64,000 bases of DNA from Candidatus Poriferisodalaceae bacterium. GTDB lineage: Bacteria; Actinomycetota; Acidimicrobiia; Acidimicrobiales; Poriferisodalaceae. The notes beneath the pieces were generated by a model that was given only the letters and a program-made list of their open reading frames with translations, did no database searches and had not been told where the DNA came from. This document shows, piece after piece, positions 23,538 to 27,518 of the stretch. The stretch is taken from positions 9,254 through 73,253 of the forward strand of contig JBLHLM010000001.1 in the NCBI GenBank assembly GCA_047618365.1. The letters are read 5' to 3'. Position numbers and translations under genes: made by a program. The first letter of the stretch is position 1. Every line of letters begins with the position of its first letter.

Positions 23538-23858
23538 ATGCTGCGTCGATTCTCACCAGACCTTCCCGAAGTGACCTTGCTTCCGGAACAAGCGCTTCCG
23601 GAACAAGCGCTTCCGGAACAAGCCGACCTGCCGTCCGCGCTTCCGGAGACGGAGCGCCGTCGGTGGCGACGGCGAATCTTTGCGACTGCGGTAGTTGTGA
23701 TCCTTGGTGCCTCGCTCACGAGCGCCCTCCTTGTCGACCGTACGAGCGATCTGTCGCACCGCCAGACTGGGCTCGAGACCGACCCGACACCGGCGTTGAC
23801 GCCTGCTGGTGTTCCCGAAGGAGTTGTCGGTTCGTTCACGGGGAGAAACGGCGGCTGA
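23538..23858 (+). CDS. small bitopic membrane protein with LPEQA x3 N-terminal repeat, hypothetical
   Basis: MLRRFSPDLPEVTLLPEQALPEQALPEQADLPSALPETERRRWRRR, then TM IFATAVVVILGASLTSALLV, then a Pro/Thr-rich tail. GGAGG at 23530-23534. First gene of the + strand operon ending at 25484. Confidence 0.5.
   Translation: MLRRFSPDLPEVTLLPEQALPEQALPEQADLPSALPETERRRWRRRIFATAVVVILGASLTSALLVDRTSDLSHRQTGLETDPTPALTPAGVPEGVVGSFTGRNGG
23579..23623 (+). repeat. three perfect in-frame 15-bp tandem repeats gcttccggaacaagc (encode LPEQA)
   Basis: Read directly. A degenerate partial copy (gcttccgga) follows at 23639. Confidence 0.9.
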
Positions 23859-23885: not shown

Positions 23886-24935
23886 ATGAGCCTTCGGTCT
23901 TCCCGCCTCAACGCTGACAGTTTTGCCGAGCTCCAGGAGCTCTATCACTCGCGTGGATGGACCGACGGCTTGCCGATCGTGCCGCCGACCCCGGATGCGG
24001 TGCAGGGCTGTCTCGACTGGGCGATGCTGCCTGCCGATCATCTCGTCGGGATCGAGCCAGTCCGGGCCAGGGCGATCACCGCCGAGAAGCTTGCGATCAA
24101 CGCTGTCATGGCTGGCTGTCTGCCGATGCACTTCCCGGTAGTGGTCACCGCGATGACGGCGATGCTTCAGGAAGAGTTCTTGCTTCATGGCGCGACCGCG
24201 TCCACCGGCGGTTGCGCGGTGCTGTTGATCGTCAACGGACCGGTCCGTCGCGAACTTGGGATGACCACTGACTTCAATGTGCTCGGCAACTCCGACCGGG
24301 CATCGGCTGCCATTGGCCGAGCGATCCGCCTGGCGCTGATCAACGTGCTCGATGTTCGGCCAGGCGAGATCGATCGCTCGACCCTCGGTCATCCTGGGAA
24401 GTTCAGTTACTGCGTGGCCGAGGACGAAGAAGGATCGCCGTGGGAATCTCTCGCGACCGAACGCCTCGGTGACCCCTATGTATCGGCGGTGACCGCCATT
24501 GCGTCCATGGCACCCCGCCAGATCATGAACGAGTGGACGACCGATCCGCGAGAGATCTGCGAAACCGTCGCTGCGGAGATGCGAGCGAACCAGCTCAACT
24601 ACTCGATCTGGGCCGGCAACTACACGGTGATCCTGCCGCCCCAGCTGAGAGCATCGTTCATCACTGCAGGGTGGTCGAAGGCCGACATCCAAGAATGTGT
24701 GTTCGAGCGGGCTCGCGTCAAGCGAGGTCAGTGGGCCGAAGTCGGCAAGGGTTCTGTAGTGAAAGACCGAGCGGAGCGGGAGTACGCAGCGCTGGGTTCG
24801 CCCGATGATCTGATGATCGTCGCCGCAGGGGGACCGGCTGGCGGATTCGCCTCGGTGATCCCGCCATGGTTGGGAACGAAGAGTCGAGCCTCGACGGTTG
24901 CAGTCGGGGCCTGTGTCGATTGCGAGGTGTCATAG
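23886..24935 (+). CDS. conserved-looking protein of unknown function with C-terminal CxxC, directly abutting the selenoprotein gene
   Basis: 349 aa with globular composition and high GC3, e.g. GWTDGLPIVPPT and HGATASTGGCAVLLIVNGP. It ends GACVDCEVS. Stop TAG 24933-24935 is immediately followed by ATG 24936. Confidence 0.7.
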   Translation: MSLRSSRLNADSFAELQELYHSRGWTDGLPIVPPTPDAVQGCLDWAMLPADHLVGIEPVRARAITAEKLAINAVMAGCLPMHFPVVVTAMTAMLQEEFLLHGATASTGGCAVLLIVNGPVRRELGMTTDFNVLGNSDRASAAIGRAIRLALINVLDVRPGEIDRSTLGHPGKFSYCVAEDEEGSPWESLATERLGDPYVSAVTAIASMAPRQIMNEWTTDPREICETVAAEMRANQLNYSIWAGNYTVILPPQLRASFITAGWSKADIQECVFERARVKRGQWAEVGKGSVVKDRAEREYAALGSPDDLMIVAAGGPAGGFASVIPPWLGTKSRASTVAVGACVDCEVS

Positions 24936-25484
24936 ATGTCTAGGCAGGCAATGTCTGAGTCCGGTTGGGTCGTGCTTGACCCGAGTCATGAGGATCGCAA
25001 GGTTGGTAGCGAGCCAGCCCCCAGGCTGGCGACGCTCGCTGGCACGACTGTTGGGGTGATTTCGAACGGCAAGGAGAACACCCGCCCGTTCTACGACCAC
25101 GTCGAGCGCATCTTGCGTGAGCAGCACCAGGTCGCCGAAGTGGTCCGACGCATCAAAGGCAACTACAGCGCGCCTGCTGAGGACGAGCTGATGGCCGAGG
25201 CCATGGGGTGGGATGCAGTGCTCAGCGGGGTAGGTGATTGAGGCAGTTGCTCGTCGTGCAGTTTGCACGACGCTGTGATTGCGGACCGCCAAGGTGTGCC
25301 CGCTGTGTCGGTCATGACGACCGCCTTTGTTGATGCTGCCGAGGCGATGGCGCGGGTTCAGGGTGTGCCCGATCACCCCTTCGCCATCATTGAACATCCG
25401 ATCTCGAGCGCCGACGAGGAAGGGCTGATTGCCCGTGCGCAGGCTGCCGTGGACCGGATTGTTGAGGTTCTCGTTCTCGCATAA
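24936..25484 (+). CDS. UGSC-motif selenoprotein (in-frame TGA 25239..25241 read as selenocysteine), function unknown
   Basis: Track ORFs 24936..25241 and 25263..25484 are in the same frame, with no stop other than the TGA. Read-through gives ...WDAVLSGVGD-U-GSCSSCSLHDAVIADRQGVPAVSVMTTAFVDAAEAMARVQGVPDHPFAIIEHPISSADEEGL..., 182 codons. A SECIS-like hairpin follows the TGA. Confidence 0.75.
25252..25272 (+). promoter_or_regulatory. SECIS-like stem-loop (8-bp perfect stem, AGUUU loop) 10 nt downstream of the in-frame UGA
   Basis: CGTCGTGC-agttt-GCACGACG read directly. The loop starts 19 nt after the UGA, which is within the spacing I recall for bacterial SECIS elements. Confidence 0.6.
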
Positions 25485-25485
25485 A

Positions 25486-25547
25486 CCAGAACTGCTCCGG
25501 CTACCCAGGCGAGAAGCCAGAACTGCTCCGGCTACCCAGGCGAGAAG
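25486..25547. repeat. perfect 31-bp tandem duplication ccagaactgctccggctacccaggcgagaag x2 covering the lrp 3' end and stop
   Basis: Read directly. Copy 2 (25517..25547) contains the last codons and the TAG (25532-25534) of the Lrp gene. Copy 1 fills the gap to the selenoprotein stop (25482-25484). Confidence 0.9.
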
Positions 25548-26914: not shown

Positions 26915-27469
26915 TTGTCTACCCAGCCGCTCCAAATGGCCTGCGCCGCCACCCGCGAAACCCTCACCAACATCAAGGCCGATCAGATGAGCGCCGCGAC
27001 ACCTTGTGCATCTTGGGACGTTGCTGGTTTGGTCAACCACATCGTTGGCGCCCAGAACTTCTTCCTGGCAGGTCTGACCGGCATGCCTCCGGGCGAAGAG
27101 GTCGACTATGCCGCTGGCGACTATGTCGCAGAGTTCGATGCCGCCAGCGCCAAGCTGCTCGAAGCCTTCGGTGCCGAAGGTGCCCTTGAGAAGACGTACA
27201 CTCTTCCGTTCGGCGAAATGCCCGGAGCGGCATTTATGGGCCTCGCCGCCACCGATACCTTCCAGCACGGCTGGGACGTTGCCAAGGCCACCGGCCAGAG
27301 CACCGACCTCAACCCCGAGCTTGCCGCCGGCATCCTCGCCCAGTCCCGCGCCGCGATTCAGGACTCTTTCCGCGGTCCTGAAGGCGCTCCGTTCGGTTCC
27401 GAACAGCAGGCTCCAGAAGGCGCCACCAACGCTGATCAGCTCGCCGCCTTCCTCGGTCGCACTGTCTGA
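26915..27469 (+). CDS. DinB/mycothiol-maleylpyruvate-isomerase-N-terminal-like (TIGR03086-type) metal-binding protein
   Basis: AATPCASWDVAGLVNHIVGAQNFF and DTFQHGWDVAKATGQ. Trimmed to the TTG at 26915, which lies 7 nt after AGGAG. The upstream part of the track ORF is antisense to 26366..26839. Confidence 0.8.
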   Translation: MSTQPLQMACAATRETLTNIKADQMSAATPCASWDVAGLVNHIVGAQNFFLAGLTGMPPGEEVDYAAGDYVAEFDAASAKLLEAFGAEGALEKTYTLPFGEMPGAAFMGLAATDTFQHGWDVAKATGQSTDLNPELAAGILAQSRAAIQDSFRGPEGAPFGSEQQAPEGATNADQLAAFLGRTV

Positions 27470-27518
27470 GGAGGCACTGTCTGAGGAGGCACTGTCTAAG
27501 TAGGCACTGTTTGAGCTC
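27459..27518 (+). repeat. 15-bp tandem repeat x4 (2 perfect, 2 degenerate), each copy carrying a stop codon in the frame of 26915..27469
   Basis: gcactgtctgaggag / gcactgtctgaggag / gcactgtctaagtag / gcactgtttgagctc. The stops are at 27467, 27482, 27497 and 27512. Confidence 0.9.

Follow-up and report, generated by a model that had tools for sequence, protein, structure and literature searches.

A UGSC-family selenoprotein gene split by gene callers at an in-frame UGA, and its conserved partner gene, in a Candidatus Poriferisodalaceae contig

In-frame UGA and features of the locus

We analyzed a stretch of 64,000 nucleotides (nt) from a Candidatus Poriferisodalaceae bacterium (GenBank assembly GCA_047618365.1, contig JBLHLM010000001.1, positions 9,254 to 73,253 of the forward strand), referred to below as the window, and examined in it a gene of the UGSC family that carries an in-frame UGA and lies directly 3' of a 349-aa partner gene. 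Coordinates are positions in the window, and the features of the locus are the following:

23886..24935, + strand: 349-aa partner gene; its stop codon TAG abuts the ATG of the UGSC gene; no Pfam or NCBIfam match
24924..24927, + strand: Shine-Dalgarno-like GAGG within the 3'-terminal part of the partner gene, read directly in the sequence
24936..25484, + strand: UGSC-family selenoprotein gene, 182 codons, with the UGA for selenocysteine (Sec) at codon 102 and the stop codon TAA at 25482-84
25239..25241, + strand: UGA, very probably read as Sec (the U of U-G-S-C), aligned with the invariant Cys of Cys-form homologues
25243..25282, + strand: predicted bacterial Sec insertion sequence (SECIS) element; lower stem 25243-50/25275-82, upper stem 25252-59/25265-72, loop AGUUU 25260-64

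The frame opened by ATG 24936 meets TGA at 25239-41, continues for 21 nt without a stop to a TTG at 25263 and runs on to TAA 25482-84, so that read-through gives a product with the sequence ...GVGD-U-GSCSSCSLHD.... The GAGG is located 8 nt 5' of ATG 24936, and its placement within the partner gene suggests translational coupling of UGSC to the partner. The TTG at 25263 is found inside the hairpin, with no Shine-Dalgarno sequence ahead of it. We concluded that the open reading frames (ORFs) 24936-25241 and 25263-25484 are one gene interrupted by UGA, with Sec recoding at codon 102 very probable. An original prediction made from the letters of the window had described two ORFs in one frame with TGA 25239-25241 and 21 stop-free nt between them, the lack of a Shine-Dalgarno sequence 5' of 25263, a U-x-x-C motif on read-through and a high-GC genome of the actinobacterial type. 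All of its coordinates check, the absence of the Shine-Dalgarno sequence was confirmed in the sequence, the motif is present as U-G-S-C, and the window has 61.9% GC; the host is a Candidatus Poriferisodalaceae metagenome-assembled genome (MAG), of a family that we take to belong to the Acidimicrobiia. A protein encoded next to UGSC shows 100% identity to an NCBI entry from such a MAG.

TGA terminates 12 of 20 window genes checked (19 of the 20 with a Pfam match) and is the commonest ordinary stop there; therefore the codon is not globally reassigned. Thirteen in-frame TGAs of the window have a coding-like frame on both sides, and the one in UGSC is followed by the strongest downstream fold (-27.5 vs. 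-19.5 for the next best) and is the only one of the 13 in a Cys-rich context. Further in-frame-TGA genes were sought across the window, and no other convincing candidate was found. In every public contig examined, the gene calls split UGSC into two "hypothetical proteins". The locus is thus a bona fide but ordinary UGSC member mis-split by gene callers, and the selenoprotein call matters chiefly for annotation, as public contigs split the gene despite a curated NCBI model.

The hairpin downstream of the UGA

The upper stem (cgtcgtgc 25252-59 / gcacgacg 25265-72) is perfect over 8 bp and closes the loop AGUUU; A25260 and U25264 can also pair, in which case the stem has 9 bp around a GUU loop. 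The minimum free energy (MFE) of the hairpin was calculated as -24.4 to -28.1 kcal/mol (z = -2.46 vs. shuffled sequences, at -28.1), and 18 nt separate the UGA from the apical loop. Perfect 8-bp hairpins with loops of 3-7 nt number only 20 in the whole 64-kb window, and ∼0.008 such hairpins are expected by chance within 25 nt of a given TGA. The bacterial SECIS (bSECIS) model calls for an apical loop 3-9 nt long, an upper stem 4-16 bp in length, a UGA-loop spacing of 16-37 nt and an MFE of -7.5 kcal/mol or lower; its loop has a G among its first two nucleotides and usually reads N1-G-[G/U]-N-N2 with N1 and N2 paired (PMC13188914). The window hairpin lies within all four of these ranges, its loop agrees with the pattern, and the perfect 8-bp stem at 25252-25272 with its AGUUU loop is indeed where the original prediction had placed it, at the SECIS position.

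Compared to the consensus bacterial SECIS, of which E. coli fdhF is the classic example, the UGSC element is similar in being an in-ORF stem-loop directly 3' of the UGA, with a small apical loop containing G then U, an 18-nt spacing and a stable fold. It differs in having a sequence specific to the family: the codons of the conserved peptide S-C-S-L/V-H-D make up the apex, so that protein and RNA constraints overlap.

UGSC family membership and homologues

The family models were compared with the read-through sequence, in which C was written for U. Pfam PF24696 "UGSC" was matched at 7.8e-51 with 173 bits (cut-off 25; profile 2-171/172) and NCBIfam NF041046 "UGSC family (seleno)protein" with 128.5 bits (cut-off 125; profile 2-146/147), and both matches span the UGA. 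Across 53 aligned UGSC members, G100, D101, C/U102, G103, S104 and C105 are invariant, U/C102 and C105 being the only family-invariant Sec/Cys positions. The database homologues form two classes: entries of ∼100 aa ending in ...GVGD, which by their sequences stem from gene calls truncated at the corresponding TGA (six of them stop exactly at ...GVGD), and full-length proteins with C-G-S-C, in which an invariant Cys occupies the U position. That U should align with Cys in homologues had been predicted; homologues genuinely ending at the TGA had been named as the finding that would speak against the prediction, and none was seen, the conserved frame continuing downstream in every locus examined. 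The window gene shows no essential difference from the family (NF041046 / PF24696; e.g., Hyphomonas neptunium ABI76733.1): it has a full-length match above the curated cut-offs, U-G-S-C at the aligned position, the Sec/Cys pairing and a SECIS directly 3' of the UGA, in a host that is a sponge-associated-type actinobacterial MAG. A genome-contig scan was performed with a Cys-codon pattern and returned Cys-form homologues only, with identities of at most 39%. A PDB sequence search with UGSC gave nothing significant.

The "second Cys pair" that the original prediction saw after the U-x-x-C motif held in part. The third Cys (C108, Cys+6, TGC 25257-25259) is present in all Sec forms, but it is not a family feature, as most Cys forms have Trp (TGG) at this position. 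The Cys+6 codon TGC gives two SECIS stem pairs, both of which TGG would break; the RNA, rather than catalysis, may therefore dictate Cys here.

The UGSC-containing protein was among the most abundant predicted selenoprotein families in the Global Ocean Sampling (GOS) data, with 255 Sec forms and 21 Cys forms, and was commoner in the non-marine aquatic samples (PMC2398784). It occurs in Hyphomonas neptunium (PMC1976440), and a 2026 review counts it among families with functions largely uncharacterized (PMC13188914). The statement of the original prediction that a UGSC selenoprotein family of unknown function is known from metagenome surveys is therefore correct. The present locus adds a member to a family described since 2005-2008 and is not a discovery; in the literature searched, no paper connects Poriferisodalaceae with selenocysteine.

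Conservation of the TGA, the frame and the hairpin

A metagenome scan with the pattern G-V-G-D-TGA-G-S-C-S-S-C yielded at least 120 stretches, reduced to at least 112 distinct 60-mers after the TGA and at least 117 distinct segments; the TGA of the 117 segments is present by construction, as the pattern contains it. It is kept independently in 13 loci found via protein search (L001-L013). In syntenic contigs with 52-80% protein identity, the TGA, the frame and the conserved C-terminal part of ∼80 aa are kept in all. Altogether the same TGA with an intact downstream frame was found in more than 110 distinct sequences of wide GC content and divergence.

At the RNA level, the core seven stem pairs are kept in essentially all of the 112 sequences listed (one exception), the bSECIS loop pattern fits in 111 of them, and the MFE is -7.9 or lower in all 112. 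The pair 18-30, formed by third positions of Ser and His codons, is GC in 81, GU in 25, AU in 6 and unpaired in none. Both conservation checks proposed in the original prediction came out in its favor, the hairpin being present in all 112 listed sequences and the downstream frame being kept, including its C-terminal part.

The codons of the apex were compared among the 117 listed segments. The loop codon Ser+7 is AGT in 117/117, whereas other Ser positions of the same genes prefer AGC. Ser+5 is TCG (111) or TCA (6), Cys+6 is TGC (115) or TGT (2), and Leu+8 is TTG or CTG only; other equally conserved 4- and 6-fold codons use ∼3 effective codons. This freezing of synonymous sites at the apex supports RNA-level selection beyond the protein requirement. 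Sec forms have on average 8.05 of the 9 stem-register pairs, vs. 4.7 of 9 in distant Cys forms (49 genomes). Two close homologues carry TGT in place of TGA (L187:465 and L188:228) with an identical hairpin, TCA TCG TGC AGT CTG CAC GAC; most simply, they look like recent Sec-to-Cys changes, or else strain variants.

A codon bias was also observed immediately 5' of the UGA. The Asp codon at this position (window 25236-25238) is GAT in 91 and GAC in 26 of the 117 listed orthologues, which inverts the bias at the remaining Asp codons of these genes, where GAC is preferred. The GAT excess may reflect an influence of the context (U before UGA) on Sec decoding or termination.

Predicted fold of the UGSC protein

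The fold was modeled with AlphaFold2 (AF2) on P0001, a Cys form 56% identical to the window product, using 54 aligned sequences. The model has a predicted local distance difference test score (pLDDT) of 94.4 and consists of five strictly alternating beta-alpha units. The Sec-equivalent residue C94 is located between strand 86-92 and helix 95-110, with the invariant Cys of U-G-S-C one turn after it. The best PDB matches of the model are flavodoxin/Rossmann-like domains (lumazine synthase, REC, SIS, RpiB), with template modeling (TM) scores of at most 0.49. As modeled, the UGSC domain is an alternating beta-alpha, flavodoxin/Rossmann-like domain in which U would come directly after strand 3 at a helix N-terminus, a geometry that suits a selenenylsulfide/selenol-thiol redox couple.

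A "likely Trx-like fold" (Trx, thioredoxin) was proposed for UGSC in 2008 (PMC2398784). We found no Trx-type Pfam match in UGSC members at E ≤ 1 and no thioredoxin-fold protein among the top 50 Foldseek matches of the UGSC model. Because the AF2 model is alternating beta-alpha and its PDB matches are flavodoxin/Rossmann-like, the 2008 proposal is not supported.

Selenoprotein B of glycine/D-proline reductases (GrdB/PrdB, PF07355) was also considered. GrdB/PrdB is likewise a U-x-x-C selenoprotein, its UxxC motif being given in the GOS table (PMC2398784), and UGSC for its part seems to work with a second, larger protein encoded adjacent to it, here the 349-aa partner. None of the 53 UGSC members matched PF07355 at E ≤ 1, and no GrdB/PrdB structure was among the top 50 Foldseek matches of the UGSC model. 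The UGSC partner also differs in having no Pfam match, and nothing was seen in it that points to a pyruvoyl proenzyme. We take the similarity to GrdB/PrdB as no more than an analogy.

The partner gene and its fusions

Among Sec-form loci with enough sequence upstream, 86 of 89 have a homologue of the 349-aa partner next to UGSC, as do 49/49 Cys-form genome loci. The pairs span actinomycetes, proteobacteria, haloarchaea and Methanobacterium and occur in both gene orders; no third co-conserved gene was found at the UGSC loci. The partner family is large: a profile search gave 5337 representatives (50%-identity clusters) at E ≤ 1e-3 and 1281 at 1e-30, and one search returned more than 7700 matches. 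Some members stand alone, and others are tandem duplicates of ∼715 aa or carry further domains. Pfam searches of 45 partner homologues at E ≤ 1 gave nothing consistent, and no significant PDB match was obtained with the partner sequence. Foldseek returned weak matches, the best being cyanuric acid hydrolase ("Toblerone" fold) at E 7e-4 but with a TM score of 0.22, which was not taken as the fold of the partner.

Across 118 partners, the one invariant Cys is C78 (motif NAVMAGCLP; NAVxAGC in the family), present in 117. Other conserved residues are D27, T35, T107, R145, N153, D163, K172 and E179. A C-terminal C-V-D-C is found only in the Sec-linked subfamily of partners.

Twenty multi-domain partner representatives were scanned for fusion architectures, with the following results:

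Full UGSC domain, then partner: 4/20 (P0366, P0368, P0372, P0392)
UGSC C-terminal half, then partner (Sec form called after the TGA): 3/20 (P0300, P0303, P0307)
Partner, then N-terminal half of UGSC up to ...IGD (Sec form truncated at the TGA): 2/20 (P0267, P0279)
Redoxin/AhpC-TSA with CxxC, then partner: 5/20 (P0301, P0333, P0357, P0375, P0382)
Ferredoxin-thioredoxin-reductase catalytic domain (FeThRed_B), then partner: 1/20 (P0306)
Extra part without Pfam match: 5/20 (P0251, P0265, P0266, P0330, P0339)

Long stop-free stretches 5' of some Sec-form genes were also considered as fusions and were rejected as out-of-frame high-GC artefacts. A UGSC/Unknown_1 fusion was noted in 2008 (PMC2398784); Unknown_1 is probably the partner described here.

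Proposed decoding and function

Reading of the gene through its UGA is supported by the family models, which match across this codon, by the occurrence of Cys at the Sec position of homologues, by the conserved TGA and downstream frame, and by RNA-level selection on the hairpin. When the ribosome reaches UGA 25239-41, the hairpin at 25243-82 would act as a bacterial SECIS and recruit SelB-GTP-Sec-tRNA(Sec); Sec would be inserted, and translation would go on to TAA 25482. That SelB and tRNA(Sec) act on the UGSC mRNA we infer from established bacterial Sec decoding.

UGSC and the partner are constantly paired and are fused in both orders, and disulfide-reductant domains replace UGSC in some partner fusions; these observations point to a two-subunit enzyme that would be composed of a catalytic Cys protein and a U-x-x-C reductant. 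UGSC would be the dedicated redox subunit of the upstream 349-aa protein, probably translationally coupled to it. The partner Cys would be oxidized, or held in a mixed disulfide, during catalysis and then reduced by the U-x-x-C module; in other members a fused Redoxin or ferredoxin-thioredoxin-reductase domain would take over the reductant role. Enzymes fused to Trx, glutaredoxin or peroxiredoxin-type reductants offer a parallel, given that the partner is fused to UGSC, to Redoxin/AhpC-TSA or to the ferredoxin-thioredoxin-reductase catalytic domain. Fusions of this kind occur where a catalytic Cys depends on a disulfide reductant of its own. The difference is that the catalytic domain here belongs to an uncharacterized family with no Pfam model or convincing structural relative.

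On balance we lean towards this reading: UGSC would be not a free-standing "Trx-like" selenoprotein but an interchangeable selenol/thiol redox subunit of an unnamed Cys-dependent enzyme family of bacteria and archaea, the reductant of which is UGSC, a fused Redoxin or a fused ferredoxin-thioredoxin-reductase domain, and the SECIS RNA, rather than catalysis, would force part of the Sec-form signature S-S-C-S-L-H-D, in which Cys stands where Cys forms have Trp. The redox-subunit model is absent from the literature searched and may be new. The partner pairing provides a functional handle, turning "unknown function" into a testable two-subunit model (catalytic Cys enzyme plus U-x-x-C reductant). 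If the model is true, the question of what one of the most abundant environmental selenoprotein families does becomes that of which substrate the partner enzyme acts on. The large partner family deserves a name and a substrate.

Alternative explanations

Several observations weigh against the decoding and the function proposed above. For decoding, selA, selB, selD and tRNA-Sec were found neither in the 64-kb window nor in the 10 kb past its right end. The covariation score of the hairpin was matched by 35 of 500 shuffles, formal covariation being weak because the hairpin hardly varies. The stem partly follows from the codons for S-S-C/W...H-D, and Cys forms of haloarchaea (L017, L020, L022, L024) and Actinophytocola (L019, L021) have 8-9 of the 9 register pairs. 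For function, all of the evidence for the redox subunit comes from gene context and fusions, and we give that model a slight preference. In the UGSC-partner fusion P0366 the UGSC domain has lost CGSC (...DIGAAMSW...) and the partner keeps its invariant Cys; P0366 thus has a degenerate module and may be a counter-example to an obligatory redox role. The AF2 model of the partner has a pLDDT of 83.9 and no convincing solved relative. We found no experimental work on the UGSC family in the literature searched, which calls it a selenoprotein of unknown function.

The alternative that survives best concerns function. The U/C-x-x-C(-x-x-C) motif and the partner cysteines could bind a metal or an Fe-S cluster, with no selenenylsulfide relay. 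The Sec subfamily has three close Sec/Cys residues and its partner an extra C-terminal CxxC; the fusion P0266 has a CxxC domain with no Pfam match that is NifU-like by inspection only; and P0306 carries a fused FeThRed_B, which is an Fe-S protein. Against metal or cluster binding, the family-wide invariants are only U/C102, C105 and C78 of the partner, most Cys forms have Trp instead of the third Cys, and Cys-linked partners lack the C-terminal CxxC. In addition, the commonest alternative fusion observed is the thioredoxin-fold Redoxin/AhpC-TSA with CxxC, a disulfide-exchange module. We regard this alternative as unlikely.

Much less likely is a UGA read without selenium, by a near-cognate or suppressor tRNA as Trp or Cys, with a hairpin that slows the ribosome or reflects codon choice. 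The lack of sel genes in the window and in the 10 kb to its right agrees with it. ARAGORN detected no tRNA in the window and Rfam gave no match there; the 20 largest window ORFs have unrelated Pfam domains or none, and the 10 kb to the right of the window contain a Tad pilus locus followed by PNPOx, Crp, CHAD and Ppx genes; to the left of the window, no gene call that matched was found. A scan for the SelD active-site motif in all fetched loci gave nothing. A soil metagenome contig carries a tRNA-Sec (L079:7-102; ARAGORN; Rfam RF01852, 72.9 bits) at a distance of 2.7 kb from a Sec-form UGSC gene. Only three tRNAs, this one included, were detected across all 188 fetched loci, and its presence on the contig of a Sec-form gene argues against a selenium-free reading.

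The retention of most of the stem in some archaeal Cys forms is also in accord with selenium-free reading. Archaeal carriers of Cys-form UGSC are not expected to decode Sec. The stem-keeping haloarchaeal and Actinophytocola forms encode the peptide S-S-W-[TS]-[MLI]-[HR]-D with the sequence TCGTCGTGG...CACGACG. The codons for S-S-W..H-D are self-complementary by nature, and the stem of these forms may have been inherited from a Sec ancestor or have arisen simply through codon choice. On the other side, the loop nucleotides are selected too, with the invariant AGT set against the local AGC preference; the loop G and U are at positions the bSECIS model requires; TGA is a normal stop in the window; and the UGSC family is accepted as one of selenoproteins, for which SECIS predictions are strong (PMC2398784, PMC13188914).

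Least credible is a genuine stop in a split or decaying gene, leaving a 101-aa N-terminal fragment with or without a 73-aa fragment from TTG 25263: it would accord with the split annotation in every public contig examined and with the lack of visible Sec machinery in the window, but the TGA and the downstream frame are conserved in more than 110 distinct sequences, the family hidden Markov models match straight across the TGA, TTG 25263 has no Shine-Dalgarno sequence and is buried in the hairpin, and nearly every sequence retains the seven codons from the TGA to TTG 25263 (G-S-C-S-S-C-S), which form the family signature motif and therefore must be translated.

Surroundings of the locus

Tandem repeats were observed around the gene. 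Between the convergent UGSC and AsnC/Lrp genes, positions 25486-25547 are a perfect 31-nt tandem duplication (CCAGAACTGCTCCGGCTACCCAGGCGAGAAG, two copies), which is absent from two otherwise identical metagenome contigs (L063, L064). The locus is also flanked by 15-nt tandem repeats at 23579-23623 (3.0 copies, GCTTCCGGAACAAGC) and 27459-27515 (3.8 copies, GCACTGTCTGAGGAG).

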